Source: an uncultured Actinomycetes bacterium (lineage in GTDB: Bacteria; Actinomycetota; Thermoleophilia; UBA2241). From it: 64,000 nucleotides of DNA. Position 1 is the first letter of the stretch. Each line of letters opens with the position of its first letter. The position numbers and the translations under genes are program-made. Shown here piece after piece: positions 29,340 through 53,602 of this stretch. Location of the stretch: NCBI GenBank assembly GCA_963764225.1, contig CAVXRL010000007.1, positions 531,510 to 595,509 of the forward strand. Reading direction: 5' to 3'. The notes beneath the pieces were generated by a model that had not been told where the DNA came from, ran no database searches, and saw nothing but the letters and a program-made list of their open reading frames with translations.

Positions 29340-29367
29340 GGGCGCGGCTCGGTGGAGGGCGGCGGCG

Positions 29368-30675: not shown

Positions 30676-30695
30676 GCGGAGGTCCTTTCGGTGCT

Positions 30696-32078: not shown

Positions 32079-32128
32079 GGCGACCTCACCGAGCAGGTCG
32101 TGTTCGCTAGCGCGTGTCGCTCATGGGC

Positions 32129-32393: not shown

Positions 32394-32451
32394 GCTGGCC
32401 CTCCGTGGTCGTGGTCGTGGCTGGCTGGTCGTGCGCTCGCGGCGTGCCGGC

Positions 32452-33855: not shown

Positions 33856-33860
33856 GGAAC

Positions 33861-35228
33861 TTACTCCCTCGGGTCGACAGCGACAGGCTCGGCGCAGTCC
33901 GCCGTAGCCGGGATCTCGAAACTGAACTCGGCCCACTCACCCCGTTTGGAGTCGGCCGTGATGCGCCCGCCGTGCAGCTGGACGATGCGCCAGGAGTTGT
34001 AGAGCCCGACGCCGGTGCCGCGGCGGCTTTTGAGGGCCGGGTCGTCCAGGCGCGAGAAGCGGCGGAAGAGCTTGTCCTGCTGCGCCGTGTCGAAGCCCGG
34101 CCCGCTGTTCCACACGCTGATGCGCAGGCGTTCGCCGAGCTTGCGGTCGAACAGCACCTCGGCCTTGACGCGGATGTCGCCGCCCTCGTTGCCGTACTTG
34201 ATGGCGTTGTCCAGCAGGTTGACGGTGACGATGCGCAGCAGGGTGGGGTCGCAGCACACCGGCGGCAGCGCCGGCGACGGCATGCAGACCATGAGGTGCA
34301 CGCCGTGCGAGTCCGCCTGGGGGCGGACCAGGTCGACGGCCTCGTCGAGGACCTCTTCCATGACGTCCACGCGCGAGCGCGTGGCGAGCGTGAGCTCGCC
34401 GCCCTCGACGCGCGCCAGGTCGAGGTACTCGCGCACGAGGCTGAGCAGGTACTGCCCCTTGCGCGCCATGCTCTCGACCTTGGCCTTCTGCTCGGGAGTG
34501 AGGTCGCCGAGATAGCCCTGGGCGAGGACCTGGGCGTCCGTCACCATGGACGCCACGGGGCTCTTGAGCTCGTGGCTCACGAACCCGAGCATCTGGGTGT
34601 ACGCGTAGTTGGCGTCTTCGAGCTGTTCGATGCGCCAGGCCTTCTCCACGGCCTGGCTGAGGCGCTCGGTGATGGCCATCTGCAGCTCGATGTGCTGTGG
34701 GCCGTACATGTGGGGCCGCAGCGAGCTGCGGAAGATGAACCCGACCACGCGGCCCTCGACGCTGAGCGGGCAGGTGAGGCTGGAGCGCACGCCCTCGCGC
34801 ACGAGCAGGCGCGAGGAGCGGCTCTGCGGGCGGTCGTGGCTGTACGCCTCGAGGTCGCCGATGATGCGCGGCAGCCCGTTCTGCAGCACCTCGCTCAGCG
34901 TGCTGTTCTGAAGCGACTCGCGGTACCCCTGCTTCACGTACAGACGGTCGTAGGACGCCCGGTTGTAGTAGCTGGTGACCGAGCCGCCGTGCTCGTCCAC
35001 GAACGCCAGGCCCATGCGGTCGCAGGGGATGAGCGCCTGGGTGTGCTCGAAGAGGTAGTCGACGATGGCGCGCAGCGACGGCCTGGCGGCGATCTTCTGA
35101 TTGACGGTGCGGAGCACCGTCCGCGCCTCCGGGCTGATGGGTCTGAGGGCGTCGCCGTCACGGAACGGGTCGACGTAGGTGACGGCGGGGCGCTGGGTCT
35201 GCTGGGGTTCGTCGGCCATCGGCCTCAA
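33861..35228 (-). CDS. GAF-domain sensor histidine kinase
   Basis: N-terminal GAF-like region, HisKA (FVSHELKSP) and HATPase (NLLDNAIKY...GTGVGL). Confidence 0.75.
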   Translation of the reverse strand: MRPMADEPQQTQRPAVTYVDPFRDGDALRPISPEARTVLRTVNQKIAARPSLRAIVDYLFEHTQALIPCDRMGLAFVDEHGGSVTSYYNRASYDRLYVKQGYRESLQNSTLSEVLQNGLPRIIGDLEAYSHDRPQSRSSRLLVREGVRSSLTCPLSVEGRVVGFIFRSSLRPHMYGPQHIELQMAITERLSQAVEKAWRIEQLEDANYAYTQMLGFVSHELKSPVASMVTDAQVLAQGYLGDLTPEQKAKVESMARKGQYLLSLVREYLDLARVEGGELTLATRSRVDVMEEVLDEAVDLVRPQADSHGVHLMVCMPSPALPPVCCDPTLLRIVTVNLLDNAIKYGNEGGDIRVKAEVLFDRKLGERLRISVWNSGPGFDTAQQDKLFRRFSRLDDPALKSRRGTGVGLYNSWRIVQLHGGRITADSKRGEWAEFSFEIPATADCAEPVAVDPRE

Positions 35229-35298
35229 GTGTACCTCGTGCGGGCGGCCGGGCTGCCCTGAGTCGGGTCAGCCCGGCCGCCGCTGGTCTTGCGTCAGG

Positions 35299-37233
35299 TC
35301 ACGCCTGCGGGATGTGCTTGCCGCGGGCGATGTACTCCGTGTGCAGGAGCTTGTGGCTCTTGTGGCCGCACGGGCCGTCGGTGAGGAACTCACCGTAGGT
35401 GGCGAGCACGGCCGGGTTCTCGTGCGACTTGCGCACCGCGTAGGCCGAGTCCTCCGAGTAGATGGCCCTGGCCCGGGCGGCACGGATGTCCGCGCTGGTC
35501 GGGATGGGCTGGCCGCCGCCGCCCAGGCAGCCGCCCGGGCAGGCCATGAACTCGATGAAGTGGCACTCGCTGAACTTGCCGCCGGCCTTGATGTCGTCCA
35601 TGACCTTCTTGGCGTTGGCGGTGCCGTGCGCCACGGCCACCTTGAGCGTCGCGCCGTCCAGCCAGTCCCAGTCCGGCACGAGGTGCGCCACGATCTCGGG
35701 CACCGGGCCGACCTTGGGGACGGTGATCTCGGCGTACTTGACGCCCTCGAAGCCGCGCACCGGGATGATGTCGCCGTGGTCGTAGATGCTCTCGATCTTC
35801 TCCCCCGTGACCATCTCGATGACGGTGCGCAGGGCGGCCTCCATCACGCCGCCGCTGGCGCCGAAGATGACGCCGGAGCCGGTGGCCGAGCCGAAGGGGT
35901 CGTCGAAGTCGCTCTTCGGCAGCGTCGGCACGTGCAGGCCGGCCTCCTTGAACATCTTGCCGAGCTCGCGCGTGGTGAGGCCGTAGTCGACGTCCTGGAA
36001 GCCCGAGTCGACCATCTCCGGCCGGTTGCACTCGAACTTCTTCGCCGAGCAGGGCATGAGCGCGACGCTCACGATCTTGGCGGGGTCGACGCCCATCTTC
36101 TCGGCGTAGAACGTCTTGATGAGCGCGCCGAACATCTGCTGCGGGCTCTTGGCGCTCGAGGCGTTGGGCAGGTACTCGGGGTAGAAGTGCTCGAGGTACT
36201 TGACCCAGCCCGGCGAGCAGCTGGTGAACTGCGGCAGAGCCACGCTCTCGTCCTTCTCCACCAGCGCCTTGTAGAGCCGGAGGATGAGCTCGGTGCCCTC
36301 CTCGATGATGGTGAGGTCGGCGGTGAAGTTGGTGTCGAACACCTTGTCGAAGCCGGCGCGCCGCAGGGCGGTGTTCATCTCGAACGTGACCGGCGTGCCC
36401 GGCTCGAGGCCGAACAGCTCGCCCATCGCCGAGCGCGGCGCGGGCGCCGTCTGGATGACGACGTGCTTGTCGGGGTCGTCGATCGCCGCCCACACCTCGT
36501 CGGTCTCGTCCTTGGCGTACAGGGCGCCGACGGGGCAGCGGTTGACGCACTGCCCGCAGTTGATGCAGACGGCGGTGCCGAGGGGCATGTCCTCGAACGT
36601 CTCGATGGTGACCTTGTTGCTGCGCCCGACGGCCTCCAGCACGCCGACCTCCTGCACGTCGATGCAGGTGCGGATGCAGCGGCGGCAGCGGATGCACTTG
36701 TTCATGTCGCGGACGACGCTGTAGCTCGAGTCGTCCACCGCGAACGCCGGCTCCTCGGGATGGCCGTAGGGGTAGCTCGTCACCCCGTACTCCTCGGCCA
36801 GCGTCTGCAGCTCGCAGTTGCCGTTGCGCACGCAGCTGTAGCACTCGCCGCAGTGCTCGCTGAGGAGCAGCTCGAGCACGTGCTTGCGCGCCATGCGTAC
36901 CTTGCGCGTGTGCGTGTTGATCTTCTGCTGGTTCACGACCGGGAACGTGCAGGCGGGCTGCAGCGTGCGCTGGCCCTCGACCTCCACGACGCACATGCGG
37001 CACACGCCGGCTACGTCGAGGTCCGGGTGGTCACACAGCGTGGGGATCTTGATCCCGGCGGTCTTGGCGGCCTCGAGGATGGTCGTCCCGAAGGGGACCT
37101 TGGCCTCGACGCCGTCGATGACGACGCTCACCTGGGCGCCGATGGCGTCCGGGCTGGTGGTGGTGATGACGCGCCGGTGCTGCTGCGAGAGCGGCGCGCG
37201 ATGGATCGGCGTGGTCGGGTTGCTCATGCTCAC
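35299..37233 (-). CDS. hydA: [FeFe] hydrogenase catalytic subunit HydA (set 1; group A3 multimeric/bifurcating-type architecture)
   Basis: N-terminal 2Fe-2S ferredoxin domain, 4Fe-4S motifs, and H-cluster motifs TSCSPGW, MPCSAKK and EFMACPGGCLGGGGQP. Confidence 0.9.
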   Translation of the reverse strand: MSMSNPTTPIHRAPLSQQHRRVITTTSPDAIGAQVSVVIDGVEAKVPFGTTILEAAKTAGIKIPTLCDHPDLDVAGVCRMCVVEVEGQRTLQPACTFPVVNQQKINTHTRKVRMARKHVLELLLSEHCGECYSCVRNGNCELQTLAEEYGVTSYPYGHPEEPAFAVDDSSYSVVRDMNKCIRCRRCIRTCIDVQEVGVLEAVGRSNKVTIETFEDMPLGTAVCINCGQCVNRCPVGALYAKDETDEVWAAIDDPDKHVVIQTAPAPRSAMGELFGLEPGTPVTFEMNTALRRAGFDKVFDTNFTADLTIIEEGTELILRLYKALVEKDESVALPQFTSCSPGWVKYLEHFYPEYLPNASSAKSPQQMFGALIKTFYAEKMGVDPAKIVSVALMPCSAKKFECNRPEMVDSGFQDVDYGLTTRELGKMFKEAGLHVPTLPKSDFDDPFGSATGSGVIFGASGGVMEAALRTVIEMVTGEKIESIYDHGDIIPVRGFEGVKYAEITVPKVGPVPEIVAHLVPDWDWLDGATLKVAVAHGTANAKKVMDDIKAGGKFSECHFIEFMACPGGCLGGGGQPIPTSADIRAARARAIYSEDSAYAVRKSHENPAVLATYGEFLTDGPCGHKSHKLLHTEYIARGKHIPQA

Positions 37234-37246
37234 TCCTCCGCTCTCG

Positions 37247-38443
37247 TCAGGCGCTCGGGGCGCGGTTTGCGATCTCGTCGCCGAAGCCCTCGAGGATCGA
37301 GAGGAAGGCGCTCGGGCTGGTCTGGCCGAGGCCGCACTTCGAGGCGACCTGCATGGTGGCGGCGAGGTCCTTGACGCTCTTGAGGAACTCGGGCGGGCAC
37401 TCGCCCTTCTTGAGGAGCTTGACGGCCTCGAGCATCTGGGGGTTGCCCAGACGGCACGGGGTGCACTGGCCGCAGCTCTCCTCGACGAAGAAGTCGAGGA
37501 AGTTCTCGGCCACGTCGAGGATGTCGCGGTCGGGGCCGATGACCATCACCGAGCCGCCCGTCGGGATGTCCTCGAACGCCAGAGCGCGCGTGAAGTCCCT
37601 TGCGGGGACGCACACGCCGCTGGCGCCGCCGATCTGCACCGCCTTGGCGCCCTCACCGCCGACCTCCCTGAGCAGGTCGGCCACGGTGATGCCCCACGGG
37701 AACTCGTACACGCCGGGCTTCTCGCAGTCGCCGCTGATGCTGAACAGCTTGTAGCCGGTCGACTTGTCGGTGCCGAACGTCTTGAACCAGTCACAGCCCC
37801 GGCAGAAGATCGCCGCCACCGAGGCGAGCGTCTCCACGTTGTTCACCACGGTGGGGTTGTTGAGCAGGCCGGCGACCACCGGGAACGGCGGGCGGTTGCG
37901 CGGCTCGCCGCGGAAGCCCTCGAGGCTCTCGATGAGGGCCGTCTCCTCGCCGCACACGTAGGCGCCGGCGCCCATGGCCACGAGGATGTCGAAGTCGAAG
38001 CCCTCGACGCCCATGATGTTGCGCCCGAGCAGGCCGGCCGCGCGCCGCCGCTGGATGACCTCGTTGAGGTGCGGGCGCAGGTAGGTGTACTCGGCGCGCA
38101 GGTAGACGATGCCGAGGGTCGCGCCGATGGCGCGGCCGCCGATGGTCATGCCCTCGAAGACGAGGTCGGCGAACCGCGTGAGGATGACCCGGTCCTTGAA
38201 CGTGCCGGGCTCGCCCTCGTCGGCGTTGCAGATGATGTACTTCTGGTCGGCCTTCTCCGCCGCGCAGAAGCCCCACTTCATGCCGGTGGGGAACCCGGCG
38301 CCGCCGCGGCCCTTGAGGCCGCTGTCACGCATGAAGTCGACGAGGTCGGCGCGGCTCATGGCCAGGGCGGCCGTGAGGCCGGCCTCGGCCTCGATGGTCT
38401 CGTAGGTGAGGGCGTTGCCCTGCGTCTCGATCGTGGCAGGCAT
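37247..38443 (-). CDS. hydB: Hydrogenase NADH-binding flavoprotein subunit HydB (NuoF-like, short form)
   Basis: [20 protein letters not shown] and ESCGQCTPCR motifs. Confidence 0.85.
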   Translation of the reverse strand: MPATIETQGNALTYETIEAEAGLTAALAMSRADLVDFMRDSGLKGRGGAGFPTGMKWGFCAAEKADQKYIICNADEGEPGTFKDRVILTRFADLVFEGMTIGGRAIGATLGIVYLRAEYTYLRPHLNEVIQRRRAAGLLGRNIMGVEGFDFDILVAMGAGAYVCGEETALIESLEGFRGEPRNRPPFPVVAGLLNNPTVVNNVETLASVAAIFCRGCDWFKTFGTDKSTGYKLFSISGDCEKPGVYEFPWGITVADLLREVGGEGAKAVQIGGASGVCVPARDFTRALAFEDIPTGGSVMVIGPDRDILDVAENFLDFFVEESCGQCTPCRLGNPQMLEAVKLLKKGECPPEFLKSVKDLAATMQVASKCGLGQTSPSAFLSILEGFGDEIANRAPSA

Positions 38444-38446
38444 CGC

Positions 38447-38947
38447 TCACGCCTCCTTCGACGCGGCCCGGCAGGCGGCCACGATCTCTTTGGCGGTCTC
38501 GGGAGTGACCCGCGTGTGGACTTCGTCGTTGACGAGCAGAGCGGGGCCCTGGTCGCACATGCCGACGCAGCTGGCCCACTCGAGCGTGAACAGGCCGTCG
38601 TCGGTGGTCTGGTCGAAGTCGATGCCGAGCTCGGTCTTGAGCGCGTCGGCGACGGCGTCCTTGCCGGCGAAGTCGCACGAGAGCGTGCCGCACAGGCGCA
38701 CCACGAACTGCCCGGTGGGGGCGCCGTGGAGGAACGCGTAGAACGACGCGACGCTGTAGACCTCCACGGGGTGGATGTCGAGCACGTCGGCGATGGTCTG
38801 CATGGTCTCCGAGTCGATCTCGTGGAACCGCCTCTTGACATCCGCGAGGATCGGGATGAGAGAAGAGCGGCCGGGGCCGAGCTTCTCGACGAGGCTCTCC
38901 ACCTCGGCCCTGAGCTGGTCCTGATTGGTGATGATGGTCGCTGGCAT
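38447..38947 (-). CDS. hydC: Hydrogenase subunit HydC (NuoE-like 2Fe-2S thioredoxin-like)
   Basis: C-x4-C ... C-x3-C (CGTLSCD ... CVGMCDQGP). RBS GAGAGGA lies before the ATG at 38947. A GTG at 38962 is an alternative start. Confidence 0.8.
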   Translation of the reverse strand: MPATIITNQDQLRAEVESLVEKLGPGRSSLIPILADVKRRFHEIDSETMQTIADVLDIHPVEVYSVASFYAFLHGAPTGQFVVRLCGTLSCDFAGKDAVADALKTELGIDFDQTTDDGLFTLEWASCVGMCDQGPALLVNDEVHTRVTPETAKEIVAACRAASKEA

Positions 38948-38958
38948 CTGGAGTCCTC

Positions 38959-39332
38959 TCACTGCTCGAGGAGCTTCTTGACCTTGGCGACCAGCGTCTG
39001 AGGCTCCACCGGCTTGGGCTGGAACTCATCGACCGGCACGATCTCGCCGTCCTTGTCGATGTTGAGGCCCATGGCGGCGTTGACGCTGGTGAGCATGATG
39101 ATCGGCAGCTCATTACCGTTCTTGCGGATCTCGCGCGCCATGCGGAGGCCGTCGTCGGGCTCTTCCATCATGACGTCGAGGATGAGGAGGTCGGGCTTGA
39201 CCTCATCAAGCTTCTTCATGCCGTCGGCGCGATTGGCTGCGCCGATGATCTCGTAGCCCTCGCGCTCGAGGACCAGGCGGCCGGCATCGACGATGTCCGG
39301 GTCGTCGTCAATGATGAGAATCTTTGGCACCA
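38959..39332 (-). CDS. Single-domain response regulator (CheY-like REC), GTG start
   Basis: KILIIDDDPDIVDAG...LILDVMMEEPDDG...KP. Confidence 0.7.
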
Positions 39333-39702
39333 CGCTCTCCTCTGTCCGTTTGCGTTCCCCCGGGGCGGGGTCGGCCCGCCCTCCACAAGCCCGATCCACT
39401 GCCCGGTCCCGCACCCATCCCGGAGAGACCGCTGCGCGGCAGGGACGGGTGGAGGAAGGACGATCGGTCAGGCCACACACTCCACTGGATCAACGGCAAG
39501 AACTTGGCCTCAAATCCGCTCATTTTCTAACACATCAACGGCAGCTTGTGCAAGGGTGCACGAGCGTCTGAAGTTAGTATCGCACATCCTCGAACAGGCA
39601 CAAGCCGTACCTTCTGGCGAGGTGAGGGAGACGATTGTGGACAGCTCGGAGTGCGCGGCGGGGAAGAGGCGACGCCGGGGCGGCCCTTGACGCGGCGAAG
39701 CC

Positions 39703-40933
39703 TCAGAGTTGGGGCGCCGCCGCGGTCGCGGCGTCGGCCGCCGGCTCGGCCGGCCTGGCCGGCCCCTCCGGCCGCGCGTCGTGCAGCGTGACGGTGAAGG
39801 TGCTGCCGACGCCGGGCTCGCTCTTCACCGTCGGCCTCGCCGTCGTACATGTTGGCGATCTTGCGCACCGTGCTGAGGCCGAGGCCGCTGCCGAGGATCT
39901 TGACCGTCTGCTCGTTCTTGATGCGCGTGAACTCGTTGAACAGCTTGCCGGCCTCTTCCGCGCTGAGCCCGATGCCCGTGTCGCTCACGGTGACGACCGC
40001 CGCGTCGCCCTTGCGGCTGAGCGTGACCTTGACGTCGCCGCCGTCGCGGTTGTACTTCACGGCGTTCGAGATGAGGTTGTTCAGGACGATCTCGACCTCG
40101 CCGGGGTCGGCCTTGAGCTCGACGTCCGGTCCGTCCGCGAGCTCCACCGTGATGCCCCGGCGCTCGGCGTCGACGGCGAACAGTTCCATCGACGCGCGCG
40201 CGAGCTCGCGCAGGTCCACGCGCCTGATGACGCGCTCGCGCTGCCCGGACTCGATGCGCGTGAGGTCGAGCAGGTCCATGATGAGCTTCTTCATGCCGTC
40301 CACGCGCACGATGCTGCGCTCCACCATCTGCAGGTTCTGGTCGGCCTCGGTGGTGCGCAGGATGTTGAGGTAGCCCTCGACGGCGTTGAGCGGCGCCTTG
40401 AGCTCGTGCGCGAGCACCGAGATGAAGTTGAAGCGGATCTCGCGCTTCTCCTCGGCGAGCTTGCGCGCCTGCTTGCTCAGGATGAGCTGGCTGGTCGCCT
40501 TGCGCAGCGCGTAGCGCAGCTCCTCGGGCGTGAAGGGCTTGGCGAGGAAGTCGTAGGCGCCGAGCTTGGTGGCCTTGACCGCCGTCTCGAACGTGGCGTA
40601 GGCCGTGATCATGATGGTGAGGACCTCGCGGCCCTGGGCGCTCATGGCGTCGAGCACGTCCATGCCGCCGACGCCCGGCAGCTTGAGGTCGAGCAGCAGC
40701 AGGTCGACCTCGCCGCCCTCGCCGAGCCACGTCAGGTAGTCCTCGCCGCTGGTGAAGTAGCGGAACTCGTAGTCGGCGTCGACGAGCACGTCGGCCACGT
40801 GCACCCTGTACTTCTGGATGATGCGGCGGACGCCGAGGCAGAGCGCCTCCTCGTCGTCGACCATGACGACCTTGAGGGTGACCTGCTGCGGGTCCATGAG
40901 GCTCTCGCGCGCGGTCGGGTCAGGAGAGTTCAT
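39703..40933 (-). CDS. Hybrid response regulator-histidine kinase (REC-HisKA-HATPase); apparent frameshift near 39835 in the HATPase C-terminus
   Basis: REC (VVMVDDEEAL...LLLLDLKLPG), HisKA (FISVLAHELKAPLN), HATPase (NLISNAVKY...DTGIGL...GSGLGLSTVRKIANMYDGE). In-frame junk follows. The +1 frame gives ...VKSEPGVGSTFTVTL... ending at TGA 39703. Confidence 0.65.
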
Positions 40934-40935
40934 GA

Positions 40936-42990
40936 TCAGCTCCCGGTGATCTCCTGCAGGCTGGCCGGGACGTCGGTGGGCGCCTCGTACCGGGGCAGGG
41001 AGATGCTGAAGGTGGTGCCGGTGGGGCCCTTGGCGGGGTCGGCGTTGGACTCCACGCCGATCTGGCCGCGGTGCATCTTGACGATGCCGTGCGTGACGGC
41101 GAGCCCGAGCCCGGTCCCCTTGCCGACCTGTTTGGTCGTGAAGAACGGGCTGAAGAGCTTGTCCAGGTTCTCGGGGGGGATGCCCGTGCCCTCGTCCTGC
41201 ACCGTGATGAGGACGTGCTCGTCGGTACCGTCGAGCTTGACGAGGATCTCGCCTCCGTCCGGCATGGCGTGCTGGGCGTTGGTGAGCAGGTTGGTGAGCA
41301 CCTGGACGATCTGGTCGCCGTCGAGCTCGGCGACGGGGTCCTCGAGGTGGTCGACGACCTGCACGGAGACGCCCTCGGCGACGGGCAGCGTGCGCATGAC
41401 CTCGGCGACGAGGCTGGTGACGTCGGTGGGCTGGCGCACCACCCGGCTCTGGCGGGCGAAGTTGAGCAGGCCGGAGATGATCTTCTTGCAGCGGTTGGCC
41501 TGGTCGACGATGAGCTTGACGTCGTCGGCCTCCTGGGAGTCGACCTCGCAGTCCTCGAGCAGCAGGTTGGCGTGCAGGAGGAGGATGCCGAGCGGGTTGT
41601 TGACCTCGTGGGCGATGCCGGCCGCGAGCTGGCCCATGCTGGCGAGCTTCTCGCTCTTGACCAGGGCCTCCTTGGTGGTCTCCAGCGAGTGGTTGGTCTC
41701 CTGCAGTTCGTCGACCGTCTTGCGCAGCTCCTCGACGGAGTACGGCAGGCACATCTCCACCTCGGCCAGGCCCTGCCAGATGGCCACCGCGTGGTGGCGG
41801 CAGGTGTCGTACCCGCAGGCCCCGCAGTCGAGCTCGTCCTCGGGGCCGTACTTGTTCATGCGCGCGAGGATCTCCTCGACCTCCTCGCCGGACGGCATGT
41901 CGTCGAAGCGCTGGTCGAACGGAGCGAAGGTGCGCGAGAGGTCCACGTCGGCGAACTCGGCGACCGCGGCCTCCCACGCCGCCTGGTCGAAGGCGCTCTG
42001 GCGGCGGCGCGTCTCCTGGCTGACGTCCGAGCGGCGTTTGAAGACGGGGTCCTCGCAGCTGAAGCCGGCGCCCATGATGCAGCCCTCGCAGCAGAGGATG
42101 TCGAGCAGCCGGGCCTCGGTGTCGCCGTGCTCGAAGTCGGTGATGGCCTCCACCAGGTTCTGGCGGCCGTCGGCGCTGACGATCTCGCCGTCCAGCAGGT
42201 CTTCTTCGAGATCGGCGGCCTGGAGCAGGCCGCGCGTGATGGGGAAGAGGGCGCCGAGGCTGCCGTGCGGCGGGTCGAAGTCGTCGTCGCCGCCGTCGCG
42301 CCCCGTGAGGCGGATGCCGTTCGAGGCGAGCAGGGTGCGCAGCTCGACGTAGGTGAGCGCCGCGTGGACCTCTCCCTCGAACTGCTCGTAGCGCGCCTCG
42401 CCCTTCTTGGCGATGCACGGGCCGATGAACACGACCCTGAGGTCCGGCCCGTGCTTCTTGTGCAGCACGCGCGCGATCGCGAGCATCGGCGAGACGATGG
42501 GCGCCAGGTTGTCGAGGATGCCGGGGTTGTACTTGCGCACGTAGCTGACGACGGCGGGGCAACTGGTGGCGATGTGCCGGCCGTCGCTCTCCTCGAGCAG
42601 GCGCGCGTACTCGGCGGCCACGAGGTCGGCGCCGAAGCTCACCTCGTGGACCTGGGCGAAGCCGAGGTCGCGGAGGGCGCCGACCAGCGCCGCCGTGTCG
42701 CACTCCGTGAACTCGGCCGGGTAGCTCGGCGCCACGATGGCCGCGACGGGAGCGTCACCGGCCAGCAGTCCCTCGGTGTCCTCGATGCCGCTGAGCACCT
42801 GCTTGGCGTTCTGGCTGCAGATGGTGACGCAGTTGCCGCAGCCGATGCAGCGCGTCTGGATGACGCTCGCCTGCCCGTCGAGGATCTGGATGGCCTTGGC
42901 CGGGCACTCGCGCACGCAGGTGTAGCAGCGGCGGCACTTCTCCCGGATCGTCGTGACCAGCTGGAGGTAGGGGACCTTGTCTTCGTTCAT
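40936..42990 (-). CDS. Sensory [FeFe]-hydrogenase-like protein fused to a histidine kinase (group C3-like HydS-HK): 2x[4Fe-4S]-H-domain-Cx2Cx4Cx16C-HisKA-HATPase
   Basis: CRRCYTCVRECP and CIGCGNCVTIC; H-domain variants TSCPAVVSY, GPCIAKKGE and CCEGCIMGAG; CGACGYDTCRHHAVAIWQGLAEVEMC; HisKA AHEVNNPL; HATPase LTNLLTNAQHAM...DEGTGI...GTGLGLAVTHGIV. Stop TGA overlaps the start region of the next gene. Confidence 0.85.
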   Translation of the reverse strand: MNEDKVPYLQLVTTIREKCRRCYTCVRECPAKAIQILDGQASVIQTRCIGCGNCVTICSQNAKQVLSGIEDTEGLLAGDAPVAAIVAPSYPAEFTECDTAALVGALRDLGFAQVHEVSFGADLVAAEYARLLEESDGRHIATSCPAVVSYVRKYNPGILDNLAPIVSPMLAIARVLHKKHGPDLRVVFIGPCIAKKGEARYEQFEGEVHAALTYVELRTLLASNGIRLTGRDGGDDDFDPPHGSLGALFPITRGLLQAADLEEDLLDGEIVSADGRQNLVEAITDFEHGDTEARLLDILCCEGCIMGAGFSCEDPVFKRRSDVSQETRRRQSAFDQAAWEAAVAEFADVDLSRTFAPFDQRFDDMPSGEEVEEILARMNKYGPEDELDCGACGYDTCRHHAVAIWQGLAEVEMCLPYSVEELRKTVDELQETNHSLETTKEALVKSEKLASMGQLAAGIAHEVNNPLGILLLHANLLLEDCEVDSQEADDVKLIVDQANRCKKIISGLLNFARQSRVVRQPTDVTSLVAEVMRTLPVAEGVSVQVVDHLEDPVAELDGDQIVQVLTNLLTNAQHAMPDGGEILVKLDGTDEHVLITVQDEGTGIPPENLDKLFSPFFTTKQVGKGTGLGLAVTHGIVKMHRGQIGVESNADPAKGPTGTTFSISLPRYEAPTDVPASLQEITGS

Positions 42991-43008
42991 GGCACTGCCA
43001 CCGTCACG

Positions 43009-43416
43009 TCAGTCCGCGCCGGCGAGCAGCTCGCTCACCTTGGCGAGGAGCGCCGGTGCGTCGATGGGCTTGTCGAAGTAGGCGTCGACGTTCATCTCGG
43101 CGAGGTCCTCGTCCGAGCCGGGGCGGAAGTTGAGGCCGAGCGCGCTGCTCACCGACGTGCTGATGATGATGGGCACGTGGGCGGTGCGCGCGTCGCTCTT
43201 GAGGCGGGCGGCGAAGGAGAATCCGGCGTCGATGCTCGTCATCATGAGGTCGGTGATGACGAGGTCCGGGGCCTCCTCGTCGATGCGCGTCTGCGCCTCG
43301 ACCGGGTTGGTGGCGGTGACGACGCGGTAGCCGGCTCCCTCGAGGATGAAGCGGTTGATCTCGAGGAAGTCGAAGTCGTCGTCGACGATGAGTATCAGTG
43401 CCTGCTGTCCGCTCAT
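43009..43416 (-). CDS. Single-domain response regulator (REC)
   Basis: LILIVDDDFDFLE...LVITDLMM...KP. Confidence 0.75.
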   Translation of the reverse strand: MSGQQALILIVDDDFDFLEINRFILEGAGYRVVTATNPVEAQTRIDEEAPDLVITDLMMTSIDAGFSFAARLKSDARTAHVPIIISTSVSSALGLNFRPGSDEDLAEMNVDAYFDKPIDAPALLAKVSELLAGAD

Positions 43417-43537
43417 GCTCCGCCTTCAGTATAGATGCTGCGTCTTCTTCGGCGGCGGCCCGGGCGGCCCCGGTCTCCCGGGGCCGCCCTGGGGCGCGCC
43501 GCCCACGCGCCCGGCCGCCGTCTTGCTCAGACGCGTC

Positions 43538-45316
43538 TCAGACGCGGTCGTGCTCGAAGTAGTGGGTGTGCAGGAGGTGGTGCGAGATCTCGCCGCACGG
43601 CGCCCCGAGGTACTCCTCGTACAGGGCGCAGACGGCGGGATTCTCGTGCGACTTGCGCAGCTCGCGGCCCTCGTCCTCGCGGTAGATCGCCTCGATGCGC
43701 TTCCTGCGCACCTCGTTGGTGGTGAAGCGCGGCTGCCCGCCGCCGCCGATGCAGCCGCCGGGGCAGGTCATGACCTCGACGAAGTGGTACTCGGCCTCGC
43801 CGCTCTTGATCTGGTCGATGACCTTCTGCGCGTTGCCGAGCCCGTGGGCCACGGCGACCTTCAGGTCGGCGCCCTCGAGGAACGCCCAGTCTCCCTTGGC
43901 TCCCTCGACCTTGACGGTCGCCACCTTCACGCCGTCGAGGCCCTCGATGGGCTGGACGTGCAGGTCGGGGAAGGGGAACGGGGTCTCGGTGACGATCTCC
44001 CAGGCCGTGCGCAGGGCCGCCTCCATGACTCCGCCCGTGTTGGCGAAGATGTCGGCGGCGCCGGTGCTGATGCCGAGCGGCGCGTCCATCTGCTCGTCGG
44101 GCAGGCTGCGGAAGTCGATGCCGGCCTGCTTGATGAAGGCGCCGAGCTCGCGCGTGGTGAGCACGATGTCGACGTCCTGCACGCCGCTGTCGTTCATCTC
44201 GGGACGTGCCGCTTCGTACTTCTTCGCCGTGCACGGCATGACCGAGACCACGACCATGTCCTTCGGGTCCACGCCGATCTTCTCGGCGTAGTAGGTCTTC
44301 GCGATGGCTCCGAACATCTGCTGCGGGCTCTTGCAGGTGCTCAGGTTGTCGAGCATGTCGGGGTTGAAGTGCTCCATGTAGTTGATCCAGCCCGGGGAGC
44401 AGCTGGAGAACTGCGGCAGGGCGACCTGCTCGCCGTCCACGAGGGCCTTCTTGAGCCGCACGAGCAGCTCCGTGCCCTCCTCCATGATCGTGAGGTCGGC
44501 GGTGAAGTCCGTGTCGAACACGGCGTCGAAGCCGAGGCGGCGCAGGGCGGCGACCATCTTGCCGGTCACCAGGGTGCCGGCCGGGTAGTCGAAGCATTCG
44601 CCGAGAGCGGCGCGGATGGCCGGCGCGGTCTGGACGATCACCGTCTTGCCCGGGTCCTCGAGCGCCGCCCAGACGTCGTCGATCTGATTGCGCTCGGTGA
44701 TCGCGCCCACCGGGCAGACGGCGGCGCACTGGCCGCACTGCACGCACACGACGTCGCTCAGGTTCTGGGCGAACGCCGGGCCGATGAGGGTGGCGAAGCC
44801 GCGGCCCTGGGCGAACAGGCCGCCCACCTGCTGGACCTCGTTGCACACCGTGACGCAGCGGCGGCAGGCGACGCACTTGCCGGTGTCGCGGATGAGCGCC
44901 GGGGTGCTGTCGTCCACCATCCTGAGGGTCTTCTCGCCCTCGTACCGGAGGTCGCCGATGCCGAGGTCCTCGGCCAGCGTGCGCAGCTCGCAGTCGCCCG
45001 AGCGGGAGCAGGTGCGGCAGTCGCCGTCGTGCTCGGAGAGCAGCAGTTCGACCACCATCTGGCGCGCGTCGCGCACCTTGCCGGTGTTGGTCTTGACGAC
45101 CATGCCGTCGGTGGCCGGCTGGCTGCACGAGGCGACGAGGGAGCGAGCGCCCTCGACTTCCACGAGGCAGACGCGGCAGGCGCCGATGGACTGGACGTCT
45201 TCGAGGTAGCAGAGGGTCGGCACCTTCACGCCCGCCTGTCTGGCGGCCTGAAGCACCGTGGTGCCCTCGGGGACCTCGACGGTGATCCCATCAATGGTGA
45301 GGGTAGGCATGGTCAT
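43538..45316 (-). CDS. hydA: [FeFe] hydrogenase catalytic subunit HydA (set 2)
   Basis: 592 aa from MTMPTLTIDG. H-cluster motifs SSCSPGW, MPCTAKK and EVMTCPGGCIGGGGQP, plus N-terminal ferredoxin domains. Confidence 0.9.
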   Translation of the reverse strand: MTMPTLTIDGITVEVPEGTTVLQAARQAGVKVPTLCYLEDVQSIGACRVCLVEVEGARSLVASCSQPATDGMVVKTNTGKVRDARQMVVELLLSEHDGDCRTCSRSGDCELRTLAEDLGIGDLRYEGEKTLRMVDDSTPALIRDTGKCVACRRCVTVCNEVQQVGGLFAQGRGFATLIGPAFAQNLSDVVCVQCGQCAAVCPVGAITERNQIDDVWAALEDPGKTVIVQTAPAIRAALGECFDYPAGTLVTGKMVAALRRLGFDAVFDTDFTADLTIMEEGTELLVRLKKALVDGEQVALPQFSSCSPGWINYMEHFNPDMLDNLSTCKSPQQMFGAIAKTYYAEKIGVDPKDMVVVSVMPCTAKKYEAARPEMNDSGVQDVDIVLTTRELGAFIKQAGIDFRSLPDEQMDAPLGISTGAADIFANTGGVMEAALRTAWEIVTETPFPFPDLHVQPIEGLDGVKVATVKVEGAKGDWAFLEGADLKVAVAHGLGNAQKVIDQIKSGEAEYHFVEVMTCPGGCIGGGGQPRFTTNEVRRKRIEAIYREDEGRELRKSHENPAVCALYEEYLGAPCGEISHHLLHTHYFEHDRV

Positions 45317-45327
45317 GCTCTCCTTGC

Positions 45328-48300
45328 TCACGAGCCGTACTTGCCGTAGTCGCAGCGCAGGCAGCGCTTCGCCTCGGCGACCGCGACCTCCGCGGCCCAG
45401 CTCAGCTCGACCTCGTCGAAGTTGGTGACGCGGGCGCCGACGGCCAGTTCCTCGACCGCGTGGCGCTCGACGAACGCGGGGTCGGCGTCGGGGTCGAAGA
45501 ACGTCGGCGGCTCGATGTCGCGCCGCCAGAAGGCGTGGTTGACGCCGGTGAGGAGCTCGTCCATGGCGACGGCGGCCTTCTCGCCGGCGCCGATGGCCTC
45601 GACCACCGACGACGGACCGGTCGCCGCGTCGCCGCCGGTGAACACCCAGTCGACGCTCGTCTGGCCGGTGTCCGGGTCGGCGCCGAGGTAGCCCCAGCGG
45701 TTGAGCTCGACGGGGGTGCCGTCCAGCACGGCCGGCGCGTCGAGCTTCTGCCCGATCGCGGCGATGACGGTGTCGGCCTCGACCACGAAGTCGGGGTTGT
45801 GGCCGGCCACCGGACGGCGACGGCCGCTGCGGTCGTAGTCGCCCAGCGCCATCTCCTTGCAGCGCACGCCGGTGACGTTGCCGCTCGCGTCGCGGAGGAT
45901 CTCCTCCGGCGCGACGAGCGTCATGATGTCGATGCCCTCGAGGTCGGCGGCGTCGATCTCCTCGCCCCACGCCGGCATCTGCGCGCGCGTGCGGCGGTAG
46001 AGGATCCTGACGCTCTCGGCGCCGAGGCGCAGGGCGGTGCGGGCGGCGTCGATGGCCGCGTTGCCGCCGCCGATGACGGCGACGTTCTTGCCCACTTCGC
46101 CCTTGCCGCTGACGTTGTACTCCTTGAGGAAGGAGAGGCCGTCGTACACGCCCGGGCCGTCTTCGCCCGGGACGCCGATGCCGGCGCCCTGCGGGGCGCC
46201 GACGCCGACGAACACGGCCTCGTAGCCCTCGTCCCGGAGGCTCTGCAGCGTGAAGTCCTTCCCGAGCGCCTTGCCGTACTCGAAGCGCGCGCCCATGGAC
46301 TCGATCATCCTGACCTCGCGCTCGAGCTCGGGACGCGGCAGGCGGTAGGCCGGGATGGCCTGGACCAGCATGCCGCCGGCCTTGGGCTCGGCCTCGAACA
46401 CGACCGGCTTGTAGCCCAGCCGCGCGAGGAAGTAGGCGGCGGAGAGGCCGGCCGGCCCGGAGCCGACGACCGCGACCTTGCGCGCGGCGTTCTCGGCGTT
46501 CTCCACGACCTCCGGAAGCTGGATCTCCTCCTCCTGCTCCACCATGAAGCGCTTGACGTGGCGGATGGCGAGGGCGCCGTCGAGGCTGGAGCGCATGCAC
46601 TTGCTCTCGCAGGGGTGGAAGCAGACGCGGGCGCAGACGCTGGCGAGCGGGTTGCGCTCGCGGTGCAGCTTGAGCGCCTCGTCGTAGCGCTGCTCGCCCA
46701 CCAGGCTCACGAAGCCGGGGATGTTGACGCTGGCCGGGCACGCGTTGGAGCAGCGCGCCTTGAACAGCGTCGAGCAGACGCCGGCCTCGCAGTACTTGTC
46801 CTTGATGTGGGCCTCGTACTCGTGGCGGAAGTGGCGGATGGTGCTGAGCACCGGGTTGGGGGCCGTCTGGCCGAGGCCGCAGAGCGCGGTCTGGCTGATG
46901 GACTCGCCGAGGGCGATGAGACGCTCGATGTCGCCCTCCTCGCCCTCACCGTTGCAGATGCGCTCGACGATCTCGAGCATCCGCTTGGTGCCGACGCGGC
47001 AGGGCGGGCACTTGCCGCAGCTCTCTTCCTGCGTGAACTCGAGGAAGAACCGGGCGATGTCCACCATGCAGGTGTCCTCGTCCATGACGATGACGCCGCC
47101 GGAGCCCATGATCGCGCCGAGCTCCTGCAGGGTGGCGTAGTCCACCGGCACGTTGAGGTGCTCCTTGGGGATGCAGCCGCCCGAGGGACCGCCGAGCTGG
47201 GCGGCCTTGTACGCCTTGCCGTTCGGGATGCCGCCGCCGACCTCGTAGATGAGCTCGCCGAGCTGCATGCCGATCGGGACCTCGACGAGGCCGGTGTGCT
47301 GCACGTTGCCGCCGAGCGCGAACACCTTGGTGCCCTTGCTGCTCTCGGTGCCGGTGCTGGCGTACCAGGCCGACGCCCTTGAGGATGATCGGCGCGATGT
47401 TGGCGAAGGTCTCGACGTTGTTGAGCACGCTGGGCTTGCCCCAGAGGCCGCTGACGGCCGGGAACGGCGGGCGCGGCCGCGGCTCGCCGCGGTGACCCTC
47501 GATCGAGGTCATCAGCGCGGTCTCCTCGCCGCAGACGAAGGCGCCGGAGCCCATGCGGATCTCGAGGTCGAAGTCGAAGCCCGAGCCCATGATGTCGTTG
47601 CCGAGCAGGCCGTACTCGCGCGCCTGCCCGAGCGCGTGCTCGAGGCGCTCGACGGCGAGCGGGTACTCGGCGCGCACGTACACGTAGCCCTGGTGCGCGC
47701 CGATCGCGAAGGCGCCGACGACCATGCCCTCGATCAGCGAGTGCGGGTCGCCCTCGAGCACGGAGCGGTCCATGAACGCGCCCGGGTCGCCCTCGTCGGC
47801 GTTGCAGAGGATGTACTTGACGTCGTTGTCCTGCTGCTGGGCGAAGCGCCACTTCATCCCGGTGGGGAACCCGGCGCCGCCGCGGCCGCGCAGGCCCGAG
47901 GCGAGGACTTCTTCGACGACCTGCTCGGGGGTCATCGCGGTGAGCACCTTGGCGAGGGCCTGGTAGCCGTCGCGGGCGATGTACTCGTCGATGTTGAGGG
48001 GGTCGATGATGCCGGAGTTGCGCAGCACGATCTTGACCTGGCGGTTGAAGAACGGGATGTCGTCCATCTCCGCCTGCGTCCGCTCGGTGCCGGGCGCGTG
48101 ACTCACGAGACGCTCGACGACGCGGCCCTTGAGGAGGTGCTCCTCGACGAGCTCGGGCACGTCGTCGACCTTGATGTTCTGGTAGAACACGCCGTCCGGG
48201 TAGACGAGCGCCACGGGGCCCTGCACGCAGGGGCCGAGGCAGCCGGTCTCGACGACGTCGACCTCGCCGGCGAGCTCGCGAGCCTTGAGCTCCTCGCGCA

Positions 48301-48382
48301 CCGCCTTGCTCACGTCGAGGGCGCCGGAGGCGATGCAGCCGCCGCCGGTGCAGATGAGGAAGTGACTTCTCACGTCAGCCAT
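45328..48382 (-). CDS. hydB: HydB (NuoF-like flavoprotein with N-terminal thioredoxin-like domain) fused to a C-terminal GltD-like FAD/NAD(P) oxidoreductase domain; one apparent frameshift near 47327
   Basis: N-part is ORF 46946..48382 (...[13 protein letters not shown]...[10 protein letters not shown]...[10 protein letters not shown]). C-part is ORF 45328..47325 (...[20 protein letters not shown]...[10 protein letters not shown]..., then [22 protein letters not shown]...[15 protein letters not shown]...). Shifting the frame by +1 at the aagggcg/tcggcc junction restores ...[29 protein letters not shown]. Confidence 0.75.
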
Positions 48383-48399
48383 AGCAGATCCACTCGCTC

Positions 48400-48771
48400 T
48401 CAGGTCTTGATGAGGTAGGCCTCGACGGGGGTCCCGCCGACGAGGTGGTTGACGACGATGGTGTGCACTCTGGCCTTGTCGAGCAGGCCGTAGCGGTAGG
48501 TCCTGCCGTCGGACAGGGTCAGGGTCGCCATCGGCTCCTGTTCGCAGAGTCCGGCGCAGCCGGACTGGTGCAGGCTGGCGGAGGTGACGCCGTTGGCCGA
48601 GAGCTCGGTCATGAACGCGGCCACGATCTCGCGCGCGCCGGCGGCGATGCCGCAGGTGCCCATGTGCACGGTCACCTGCGTCTCCTTGCGGCCGGAGCGG
48701 AGGTCGATGTCGGCCTTCGCCTTCTCGGCCAGTGCCTTGAGCTGGTCGGGGCTCGTGATCCGGTCGGTCAT
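48400..48771 (-). CDS. Thioredoxin-like [2Fe-2S] ferredoxin (HydD-like small hydrogenase subunit)
   Basis: 123 aa with CGIAAG...CAGLC. ATG overlaps the hydC2 stop (ATGA). Confidence 0.65.
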   Translation of the reverse strand: MTDRITSPDQLKALAEKAKADIDLRSGRKETQVTVHMGTCGIAAGAREIVAAFMTELSANGVTSASLHQSGCAGLCEQEPMATLTLSDGRTYRYGLLDKARVHTIVVNHLVGGTPVEAYLIKT

Positions 48772-49307
48772 CAGGCGCTCCTCTCTACAAGGGCCGGCTC
48801 CTCGGCGTACTGGGCGAGGATCTCGTTGACGCGCTTGGGCTTGACCCGGTGGTGCACGTCGTCGTCGACCATGATCACCGGGGCGAGGCCGCAGGCGCCG
48901 AAGCAGCGGCCGATCTCCAGGGAGAACTGACGGTCCTCGGTGGTGCCGCCGATGTCGATGCCGAGTTCTTTCTTGAAGGCGTCCATGACGGCGACGCCGC
49001 CGCGCACGTAGCAGGCCGTGCCCAGGCAGATGCGGACGAGGTGCTTGCCGCGCGGGACGGTGGTGAAGAAGGAGTAGAACCCCACCACGCCGGCCACTTC
49101 GCTGTACGGTTTCCGCAGCTCGCGTGCGATGTGCTTGAGCGCGACCTCCGGCAGGTAGCCGAAGATGCCCTGGGCGAGCTGCAGCACGGGGATCAGGGCC
49201 CCGGGCTTGCCCCTGTACTCGGCGATGACCGCGTCGAGGCGCTCGAGGAGTTCCTCCTCGGTCGGCTCCTCGGTGCAGCATGCGCACTGGTTGACTGCTT
49301 CAGCCAT
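48771..49307 (-). CDS. hydC: Hydrogenase subunit HydC (NuoE-like 2Fe-2S), set 2
   Basis: ...CLGTACYVRG...CFGACGLAP. Confidence 0.8.
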   Translation of the reverse strand: MAEAVNQCACCTEEPTEEELLERLDAVIAEYRGKPGALIPVLQLAQGIFGYLPEVALKHIARELRKPYSEVAGVVGFYSFFTTVPRGKHLVRICLGTACYVRGGVAVMDAFKKELGIDIGGTTEDRQFSLEIGRCFGACGLAPVIMVDDDVHHRVKPKRVNEILAQYAEEPALVERSA

Positions 49308-49362
49308 TCCCCTCTCCTTCGCTTGGTTCTGCTGCGATCGCTTCGCAGATGATGTCCATGGC

Positions 49363-49858
49363 TCAGCCAGCGCTCTCTGGAACAGCGGTGAGTTCCGAGA
49401 AGCGTGCCGGTATGTCCGGGCCGCGCAGGGTGGTGCGCGACCCGTCGTCTTTGAGGTCGACCCGGAACTCGATCTCCGGGTTGGTGGCGAACATCGCGGC
49501 GATGGAGGCGGCCACGTCGCCCAGCGGCGGGCGGTCGACGTTGGCGAGCCGCATGTGCGCGGTCGACGCAGACCCCGCCGAGCTCGCCGGACCGCCCCAC
49601 GGTGAGGCCGCCGCCGGCGGCCTCGGCCGCCTGCCGGAAGAGGCTGAGGCCGAGGCCCGTCTTCTTGTCGCTCTTGGTGGTGAAGAACGGGTCGAGGGCC
49701 TGCTCCGGTTCCACCGGCAGGCCCGGCCCGTCGTCCTCGACGCGCATCGTGAGCTCGTCCGCCGCGCGGTCGGCGACGATGGTCGTGGCGATCACCGTCG
49801 CCCCGGCGCGCACCGAGTTCTCGAGGATGTCGAGGAGGTAGAGCGAGAGGTCATGCAT
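49363..49858 (-). CDS. Histidine-kinase-like ATPase (HATPase_c-only) protein typical of hyd operons; apparent frameshift near 49560
   Basis: MHDLSLYLLDILENSVRAGA...VEDDGPGLPV...DKKTGLGLSLFRQAAE...GRSGELGG in frame 1 (ORF 49193..49858). C-terminus ...MRLANVDRPPLGDVAASIAAMFATNPEIEFRVDLKDDG... in the adjacent frame (ORF 49363..49554). Confidence 0.6.
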
Positions 49859-50590: not shown

Positions 50591-50937
50591 CGCATGGGTC
50601 CCCTTGACGCCCAGGGCGTACAGGCGGCCGACGACGTCGAACGTGTCGGCCGGGGAGGAGTAGAGGGCCAGGCCCTCGGCCACCGCCTTGCCGAGCACGT
50701 CGTCCTCGGGCTTGCGGCCGCCGGCGAACACCACGGCGGCGAGCTCGGCGTGGCTGGCCACGGCGATCACGTTGAGGTGGACCTGCAGGGTGACCAGGAG
50801 CCCGCCCTCCGGGGCGTGCGCCAGCACGTCACTCAGCAGGTCGGACGCGTAGCCTCGTTCGATGTCCGCATCTTTGGCGCCGGAGACCTCCGGCGTGAGC
50901 TCCGCGAACCCGAGCTCGCTGGCGATGTCCTCGAGTC

Positions 50938-53551: not shown

Positions 53552-53602
53552 AAGGGCTCCCGGGCGGTGGGTGGCCTCACTGGTCCGTTACGGAACGAAC
53601 GC

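Follow-up and report, generated by a model that had tools for sequence, protein, structure and literature searches.

A sensor-type [FeFe] hydrogenase fused to a histidine kinase between two hydrogenase operons of a Thermoleophilia-like bacterium, and its putative role in H2 sensing

Introduction

Whether the [FeFe] hydrogenases of groups C and D sense H2, and by which route the signal would leave them, is still an open question, and TmHydS and TamHydS both come without a measurable output. Surveys have catalogued group C proteins that carry a kinase of their own: 'BfuT' of the sub-type V BfuABCT clusters, located beside group A3 hydrogenases in Hydrogenedentota, Caldithrix abyssi and Bacteroidota, has WP_006928132.1 as its best match in HydDB and was classed as C3 (PMC11406978), and a HATPase-fused group C protein was reported from groundwater Elusimicrobia (bioRxiv 10.1101/765248). 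In HydDB itself, subgroup C1 is named 'histidine kinase-linked' and C3 'phosphatase-linked'. Here we describe HydS-HK, a fusion of this type encoded in a 64-kb stretch of contig CAVXRL010000007.1 (64,000 nucleotides, hereafter the window) from a Thermoleophilia-like (Actinomycetota) metagenome-assembled genome (MAG). The fusion type is already known from bioinformatics, what is new being the member from a Thermoleophilia-like MAG, and the literature agrees with the initial annotation of the window that such fusions are catalogued yet uncharacterised (PMC11406978; bioRxiv 10.1101/765248). The value of HydS-HK lies in its use as a test bed for the putative H2 sensing by such proteins.

A Sensor-Type Hydrogenase Fused to a Complete Kinase

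HydS-HK is encoded by an intact open reading frame (ORF) of 684 aa with an ATG start at 40936..42990 on the minus strand, on which the other island genes described below also lie. Its F-domain (residues 16-62, 42805..42945; Pfam Fer4, Fer4_10 and Fer4_9) holds two [4Fe-4S] motifs, C19/22/25/29 and C48/51/54/58, and is followed by the H-domain (residues 81-308, 42067..42750; Fe_hyd_lg_C, E 5.5e-42) and by an accessory Fe-S domain (residues 387-416, 41743..41832; PF04060 (FeS), E 3.6e-8) with the arrangement C389-x2-C392-x4-C397-x16-C414. The kinase core (40990..41637) consists of HisKA (residues 452-514, E 3.3e-12) and HATPase_c (residues 557-667, E 1.6e-26), both above the Pfam gathering cut-offs. 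The ORF check and the Pfam scan thus recovered every part of the layout first read from the DNA, namely the two 4Fe-4S motifs, H-domain, Cx2Cx4Cx16C cluster, HisKA and HATPase of a 684-aa protein, and the loop motifs are likewise in place (ATSCP with C144, GPCIAKK with C192, CCEGCIMGAG with C300/C301/C304, and C389-C392-C397-C414). In NCBIfam, the front half matches [FeFe] hydrogenase models and the back half AtoS/ZraS-type kinases, all below the equivalog cut-offs, as is expected of a fusion protein.

The sequence is 100% identical to database protein P0001, and across its full length it shares 73-91% identity with more than 100 independent database clusters of the same architecture; homologues at 73-89% identity bear Thermoleophilia names, on which the taxonomic placement is based. 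Its codon-position GC is typical of a gene in this 68-70% GC sequence (GC content at third codon positions, GC3, 0.97), and the antisense ORFs that overlap it (e.g., 39635-42352 on the plus strand) were judged from codon-position GC to be high-GC artefacts. Profile matches and alignments bear out that a sensor-type, group C-like hydrogenase module and a complete class I histidine kinase are covalently joined in one protein, and the identity of HydS-HK as a sensor-hydrogenase/kinase fusion can hardly be doubted.

The H-Cluster Site

HydS-HK was aligned to CpI and HydABC structures by phmmer and, using MAFFT, to 33 distant relatives together with HydA1 and HydA2 of the window; column conservation was counted over 26 kinase-fused relatives of 34-51% identity. 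All four H-cluster-ligating cysteines are present on alignment (C144 = CpI C300, C192 = C355, C301 = C499 and C304 = C503 by phmmer and MAFFT) and invariant across the 26 relatives, as are C389, C392, C397 and C414 of the accessory domain (26/26), while conservation of the F-domain cysteines is complete or at least 90%. The proton pathway is lost: in CpI numbering, the proton-relay residue C299 is replaced by Ser (S/A/T/P/N across the family), E279 by Tyr and E282 by Arg, and R286 falls into an alignment gap. The M353 position is Gly in HydS-HK and in 24 of the 26 relatives, and M497 is replaced by Leu. Retained are K358 (K195 in HydS-HK; K, R or H in 25/26) and the APS and SP motifs.

As read from these alignments, the residue pattern is that reported for groups C and D, which are putatively sensory (PMC8163306), and the Gly at M353 matches group C, represented by TmHydS, and not group D (PMC8163306). 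Group D has Ser or Thr at M353 and no fused signalling domain, whereas HydS-HK has Gly there and a fused kinase. Pfam matched no PAS domain in HydS-HK, its DHp following the Fe-S cluster through one predicted helix; the protein is therefore group-C-like but not of the M2f type. Sequence and Foldseek searches of the PDB returned no solved sensory [FeFe] hydrogenase, the best matches being group A/B enzymes at ~20-24% identity.

One feature sets the whole HydS-HK clade apart, which is that its motif L3 reads C-x-G-C (Cx2C), one residue below the canonical C-x-x-G-C (Cx3C, in full ExMxCxxGCxxG) seen in group A and in PAS-only members of group C. In HydS-HK itself, L3 is CCEGC, so that C300...C304 gives Cx3C and C301...C304 gives Cx2C, with only C301 invariant in the family. 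As the CC doublet is common to HydS-HK and its nearest sub-clade, either L3 spacing is available to these proteins. Published survey filters demand CxxxC in L3 (PMC11216029), and pipelines with this requirement would drop most of the Cx2C clade.

A Heptad-Phased Helix Between Fe-S Domain and Kinase

In an AlphaFold2 (AF2) model built from the 26-sequence alignment (mean predicted local distance difference test score, pLDDT, 87.8), DSSP assigns a single continuous helix to residues 415-480 (41551..41748), which begins right after the last Fe-S ligand C414, becomes the DHp helix with His461 and runs beyond it. The spacing between the last Fe-S cysteine and the phospho-accepting histidine is 47 residues in 114 of 114 close homologues. 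Among representatives at 50% identity, 23 of 26 direct fusions have spacings of 33, 40 (four cases), 47 (13 cases), 54 (four cases) or 68, the exceptions being 24, 48 and 49, so that 10 of the 13 spacings other than 47 differ from it by an exact multiple of 7. The independent genome loci among the matches listed add spacings of 40 (five), 47 (18) and 54 (one), 24 out of 24. Such conservation of heptad phase argues for a rigid coiled-coil transmitter, and heptad phase is known to matter in coiled-coil-coupled kinases such as FixL.

In the group D protein TamHydS, H2 fails to reduce the C-terminal cluster, and mutating this cluster barely changes catalysis (PMC13104023, 2026), which makes a redox switch at the counterpart in HydS-HK unlikely and implies that the role of this cluster would be structural or conformational. 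The heptad phasing supports, without proving, a mechanical role of the C-terminal Fe-S domain, and such a role is compatible with the TamHydS result (PMC13104023).

The Kinase and Its Receivers

The kinase boxes comprise H461 in AHEVNNPL, N567/N571, D599xG601xG603, F613/F616/F617 and G625xG627xG629, and the domain aligns to ZraS (9jfj, E 2.6e-31). Among the relatives of 34-51% identity, N571, D599, G601 and G603 are invariant and H461 is kept in 24 of 26, the boxes as a whole showing little or no variation. With its conserved His and G-boxes, HydS-HK thus carries all class I (HisKA) motifs, and autophosphorylation is predicted.

Pfam matches place the fusion between a receiver (REC), a REC-HK and a second REC, as had been proposed. 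REC_a is a stand-alone receiver of 135 aa (43009..43416; Response_reg, E 1.7e-16) lying 18 nt upstream of HydS-HK. REC-HK (39703..40933; receiver-HisKA-HATPase by Pfam) starts 2 nt after the HydS-HK stop. REC_c, a stand-alone receiver of 123 aa (38959..39330; E 6.1e-20), is the first gene of a REC-hydC1B1A1 operon, its stop lying 0-12 nt from the hydC1 start. Of the boundaries assigned earlier, those of REC_a stand, the end of REC-HK at 39703 requires a 1-base frame correction (its frame is broken near 39833), and the upper boundary of the last receiver fits better at 39330 than at 39332, giving the same 123 aa as in relatives. According to the translations, the acidic pair, acceptor Asp, Thr/Ser and Lys are intact in REC_a, REC_c and the REC of REC-HK (Response_reg E 1.7e-16 to 2.8e-20), with the acceptor Asp of REC_a in LVITDLMM and its Lys in FDKP.

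The initial annotation had called this arrangement a multi-step phosphorelay. No Hpt family was found in Pfam scans of the signalling proteins or of the other scanned ORFs of the island, a weak PF10090 match at residues 560-606 lying within the HATPase domain and not representing an Hpt, and a phosphorelay in the strict sense is therefore unsupported; the layout is that of two kinases plus receivers, a kinase cascade. In family resemblance, the HydS-HK kinase is closest to AtoS/ZraS, the REC of REC-HK to LuxO/FixJ/AtoC/NtrC, the REC-HK kinase to PhoR/PnpS and the single receivers to PhoB/YycF/MtrA/OmpR. Together with the invariant linkage of the genes (see below), these resemblances suggest that phosphotransfer would proceed from HydS-HK to REC-HK and from there to REC_a and REC_c.

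Distribution and Other Outputs of the Sensor Module

To place the cassette, a profile scan with one genome per species was used, and the counts in this paragraph refer to the matches listed. The full-length fusion occurs in Planctomycetota (among them Kuenenia), Desulfobacterota, Bacteroidota, Elusimicrobiota, Bdellovibrionales, Ignavibacteriota, Anaeromyxobacteraceae and Syntrophorhabdaceae. A REC-HisKA-HATPase gene lies downstream of the fusion in all 22 loci that have downstream sequence, which come from about eight phyla (Myxococcota among them), and in most loci a stand-alone REC stands between the fusion and REC-HK or adjoins the fusion. NuoE-NuoF-HydA is found directly upstream of the fusion in most loci, with a REC directly upstream of NuoE-NuoF-HydA also in loci of Ignavibacteriota and Bacteroidota. 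A DNA-binding response regulator is absent from all of these cross-phylum cassettes; a divergent REC-sigma54 gene is present at one locus. The whole two-hydrogenase layout is repeated in at least four Ignavibacteriota loci (L016, L018, L019 and L020), which share with window positions 33861-49307 the succession of long-HydB hydrogenase, HydS-HK, REC, REC-HK, REC, short-HydB hydrogenase and kinase. As the entire layout is common to Ignavibacteriota and Thermoleophilia-type MAGs, it suggests lateral transfer of a 15-18 kb island between them.

The sensor module has also been joined to other outputs. An HMMER scan with residues 1-430 of HydS-HK retrieved 950 cluster representatives at E<=1e-30, and outputs were read in the best 150 of these: at least 42 have HisKA directly after the Fe-S domain, ~17 have sigma-54 AAA+/HTH with or without PAS, three have GGDEF, and others end in HisKA_3, MCP, PAS only or an unassigned tail of ~200 aa. 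Examples are P0153, P0158, P0171 and P0181 for sigma-54, P0164 and P0195 for PAS-sigma-54, P0141 and P0156 for GGDEF, P0182 and P0183 for MCP, and P0146 for HisKA_3; P0150, P0210 and P0184 are proteins of ~620 aa in which the sensor module is followed by ~200 C-terminal aa that have no Pfam match. In a rough neighbour-joining (NJ) tree of 124 sequences, one clade holds the PAS-only proteins, and in the other the various direct-output fusions are interleaved. The combination of a single input module with almost all classes of bacterial signalling output is strong comparative evidence that the module serves as a sensor.

The Hydrogenase Operons and Their Surroundings

The signalling genes lie between two hydrogenase operons, an earlier reading that profile matches far beyond chance bear out. 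The operon of hydrogenase 1 (35299..38962) encodes hydC1 (NuoE-like), hydB1 (short NuoF-like, 398 aa) and hydA1 (35299-37233, 644 aa; NF040763 FeFe_hydrog_A6, 788.7 bits against a cut-off of 765). Profile matches define hydrogenase 2 (43538..49307) as hydC2 (48771-49307), a small 2Fe-2S ferredoxin-like gene (48400-48771), hydB2 (45328-48382) and hydA2 (43538-45310). The ~1017-aa product of hydB2 joins a NuoF-like flavoprotein to a GltD/pyridine-nucleotide-disulfide-oxidoreductase module, hydB1 lacks the C-terminal ferredoxin domain, and the two hydrogenases probably differ in their electron partners. In both HydA1 and HydA2, L1 reads (T/S)SCSP and not TSCCP, with Ser at the CpI C300 position; an anomalous loss of a ligand was considered and rejected, as the solved HydA1 of A. 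woodii (PDB 7q4v) has the same TSCSP, which is thus a natural variant already on record.

Read along the minus strand, the island starts with rex (52508-53551), a gene combining HATPase_c_2, ferredoxin, a reduced H-domain and an FeS domain, a 117-aa gene, a PHP gene and a small HATPase gene, continues with hydC2, the ferredoxin-like gene, hydB2, hydA2, REC_a, HydS-HK, REC-HK and a 370-nt gap, and ends with REC_c, hydC1, hydB1, hydA1, a GAF kinase, HydG, a short ORF, an aspartase-like lyase, HydF and HydE. The identical order, with all genes intact, is found in four Thermoleophilia-type MAG contigs (L001, L002, L003 and L083) at 74-90% identity. The GAF-HisKA-HATPase kinase directly downstream of hydA1 (33861..35228) is the third kinase of the island, its position being kept in Thermoleophilia relatives and Ignavibacteriota loci; beyond the genes named here, no further REC or HK was detectable in the 64-kb window.

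Downstream of the GAF kinase, within 28260-33936, HydF (546 bits against a cut-off of 325) and HydG (536 bits against 312) are encoded, with an aspartase/fumarase-class lyase between hydG and hydF that is conserved in relatives and a short ORF that has 86 aa in relatives. Since HydE, HydF and HydG are all encoded in the island, H-cluster maturation would be available. On the other side of the cassette, the gene following rex (50941-52504; intact at L001:456-2024 and L003:482-2047) encodes a second sensory-like protein, which has an N-terminal anti-sigma-type HATPase_c_2, 2x[4Fe-4S], a shortened H-domain with four cysteines (VCP, SCP, CDNGC) and no K358, and a Cx2Cx4Cx16C cluster, and which resembles the HATPase-bearing 'C1' proteins of PMC11406978. 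Between it and hydC2, at 49193-50591, the hydrogenase-2 operon also includes two conserved genes, one for a PHP protein of 246 aa and one for a small stand-alone HATPase_c protein, which has 164 aa in most relatives.

Several genes of the window are frameshifted. Breaks were located in REC-HK near 39833 (intact orthologues of 390-414 aa in L001, L002, L003 and L083), in hydB2 at ~47370 (47367/47375; an intact 1017-aa copy exists in relatives) and in the HATPase-hydrogenase-like gene (50588-52504) near 51392-51411, and HydE (~28260-29339), whose match to its model covers just positions 9-240 of 340, is probably frameshifted too. As the affected genes are still 87-95% identical to intact orthologues at the protein level, indel errors fit better than decay, which suggests that these frameshifts within ~25 kb are indels of a long-read assembly rather than marks of pseudogenes.

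Three Rex-operator-like sites are present in the window against 0.16 expected. The inverted repeat TCGTGCA-N4-TGCACAA at 39546..39563 lies in the 370-nt gap upstream of REC_c-hydCBA1 and a second site at 53602-53619 upstream of the rex-led operon, so that two of the three precede the two hydrogenase operons, the third being at 13632-13649. In L001, L002 and L083, the most strongly conserved stretch of this intergenic region is the one with the 39546-39563 site, and the core TCGTG-N8-CACAA is kept in all three. Rex probably gives NADH-dependent control, and with such an input the transcriptional switching of hydCBA1 does not have to depend on the kinase cascade. Control of hydCBA1 had been ascribed to the phosphorelay at first; since no receiver has a DNA-binding or other output domain and Rex-like operators lie at both operons, the target and the level of control by the cascade can only be inferred. 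Scans of 38800-43700 for sigma-70 promoters and intrinsic terminators found nothing, and are uninformative at 68-70% GC in an actinobacterial-type genome.

Proposed Mechanism and Alternative Explanations

Taken together, the data point to a cytoplasmic sensor histidine kinase that contains a complete group-C-type module, with two relay [4Fe-4S] clusters, an H-cluster site devoid of a proton pathway and an accessory [4Fe-4S] domain at its C-terminal side, and we consider the following full mechanism likely, if far from assured. H2, or electrons derived from it, would alter the state of the H-cluster and H-domain, and this change would pass via the C-terminal Fe-S domain, where C414 caps the coiled-coil helix that continues into the DHp with His461; while the anatomy and the heptad length are seen in the data, transmission along the helix is presumed. 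The helix signal would then switch autophosphorylation or phosphatase activity. The phosphoryl group may be passed first to REC-HK, which is translationally coupled and has an NtrC-like receiver; the PhoR-like kinase of REC-HK could in turn serve the OmpR/PhoB-like REC_a and REC_c, the linkage of these genes being observed and the order of transfer conjectural. Given the place of the cassette between two HydABC operons, its output is expected to act on H2 metabolism, possibly via an unlinked regulator or via protein-protein action of the stand-alone receivers and not through a linked transcription factor, with Rex as a presumably separate, NADH-dependent transcriptional input.

Several points weigh against this mechanism. 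Among the related proteins P0121-P0270, the clade with directly fused outputs, to which HydS-HK belongs, has Cx2C in L3 and not the canonical Cx3C, and both H-cluster insertion and H2 response of the kinase-fused proteins are predictions, the literature searched containing no biochemical study of any kinase-fused member. The cassette shows no output domain, Hpt or DNA-binding regulator in Pfam, and the NCBIfam matches used to infer the partners are all below the curated cut-offs. Furthermore, the AF2 model is a monomer whose pLDDT drops to 57-70 near residues 440-470, and the C-terminal cluster of TamHydS is insensitive to H2 (PMC13104023).

A first alternative holds that the protein monitors a redox pool, its relay clusters taking electrons from reduced ferredoxin or HydABC, its kinase reporting the reducing pressure in the cell and its H-cluster site only buffering or venting electrons. 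Redox sensing had also been allowed for in the initial annotation, the two surface-type relay [4Fe-4S] clusters are conserved, and among the matches listed most cassettes stand beside NAD(H)/ferredoxin-linked HydABC operons; in TamHydS, moreover, the H-cluster and one N-terminal cluster are the only sites that H2 reduces, so that signalling does not obviously need the whole chain (PMC13104023). However, a plain ferredoxin-like domain would do for this purpose, whereas the four H-cluster cysteines, K358 and the motifs are strictly kept across phyla, which indicates selection on the H-site, and the island already has an NADH/NAD+ input in Rex. A redox-pool sensor is an unlikely option. Rather unlikely, too, is an extension of the proposed mechanism in which HydS-HK, REC and REC-HK form a self-contained H2-responsive two-kinase circuit that has no transcription-factor output, where the terminal receiver from REC-hydCBA would act on HydABC or on the partner kinases and the heptad-locked helix would make the C-terminal Fe-S domain a mechanical transmitter; if true, it would amount to phosphorylation-dependent, post-translational control of a hydrogenase.

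It is also conceivable, if quite improbable, that the H-domain is degenerate and, with its Cx2C spacing, takes up just a [4Fe-4S] cluster in the manner of Nar1/NARF-like proteins, the protein then sensing O2, NO or cluster integrity instead of H2. The L3 of the clade with directly fused outputs does lack one residue relative to all characterised [FeFe] hydrogenases, the published surveys require CxxxC (PMC11216029), and H-cluster motifs are hard to find in some group C proteins (PMC11406978). Against this, the residues that contact ligands of the 2Fe-subcluster are kept (K358 as K/R/H in 25/26, the APS and SP motifs), the CC doublet restores the CxxxC option in HydS-HK and its nearest sub-clade, and the fusions listed are consistently linked to HydA and often to HydG or HydE. 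Far less probable is the 'BfuT' view, in which the protein is the T subunit of BfuABC clusters (PMC11406978), an additional structural or catalytic part of HydABC to which the kinase part would be secondary: although the fusion gene directly follows hydA in most loci among the matches listed, the loss of the proton-transfer Cys and pathway residues goes with slow turnover in TmHydS and TamHydS, and the conserved kinase boxes, the constant REC-HK partner and the alternative sigma-54, GGDEF and MCP outputs point to signalling. An assembly artefact or a decaying pseudogene cluster, suggested by at least three frameshifted neighbours (REC-HK, hydB2, the HATPase-hydrogenase-like gene) and probably HydE, can be dismissed with near certainty, as the HydS-HK ORF is intact, of full length, gene-like in GC3 and highly similar to its many independent homologues, and as the identity of the frameshifted neighbours to intact copies fits indel errors better than decay.

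For the proposed H2-sensing mechanism, the natural fusion to a kinase offers a simple read-out, namely autophosphorylation and phosphotransfer with versus without H2. The heptad-quantised linker provides a sharp structural prediction and the ever-linked REC-HK the first candidate for a partner.

Comparison With Known Systems

The closest described proteins are 'BfuT' and the Elusimicrobia protein, which, compared by description only, have the same order of sensor hydrogenase and kinase and the same position beside a trimeric group A hydrogenase, the evidence being bioinformatic in all cases, while HydS-HK comes from a Thermoleophilia-like MAG and stands between two hydrogenase operons. The 'C3-like' label first given to HydS-HK agrees with the class assigned to kinase fusions in PMC11406978 and not with the subgroup names of HydDB. 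REC and REC-HK partners are not described in the searched text of these reports, in which 'response regulator' occurs 0 times for PMC11406978.

With TmHydS from Thermotoga maritima (group C, M2f; Chongdar et al. 2018, as cited in PMC8163306), HydS-HK shares the N-terminal 2x[4Fe-4S] domain, the absence of C299 and the proton pathway, the replacement of M353 by Gly and the Cx2Cx4Cx16C cluster, but TmHydS has a PAS domain at its C-terminus, carries no kinase and has Ser at M497, where HydS-HK has Leu. PAS-only forms of the TmHydS type make up the separate NJ clade with canonical Cx3C, in contrast to the Cx2C of the HydS-HK clade. TamHydS from Thermoanaerobacter mathranii (group D, M2e) has the same three-part sensor module beside a trimeric group A hydrogenase (PMC8163306; PMC13104023) and, as a further likeness, a histidine-kinase-like ATPase encoded nearby; it differs by Ser/Thr at M353 and by the absence of a fused output, compared with the Gly and the fused kinase of HydS-HK.

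Among better-known regulatory systems, HoxBC-HoxJ-HoxA ([NiFe] group 2b, 'histidine kinase-linked' in HydDB) follows the same logic, in which a hydrogenase of low turnover reports H2 to a kinase that governs hydrogenase genes. However, its metal site and fold are unrelated, its sensor and kinase are separate proteins, and the pathway ends in a DNA-binding regulator of a kind that the HydS-HK cassette lacks. FixL and the engineered LOV-FixL fusions (PDB 4gcz and 8a3u, among the sequence matches) receive their input through PAS or LOV domains, whereas the input of HydS-HK is an Fe-S/H-cluster module; what they share with HydS-HK is the continuous helix, predicted in the latter, that leads from the sensor to the DHp.

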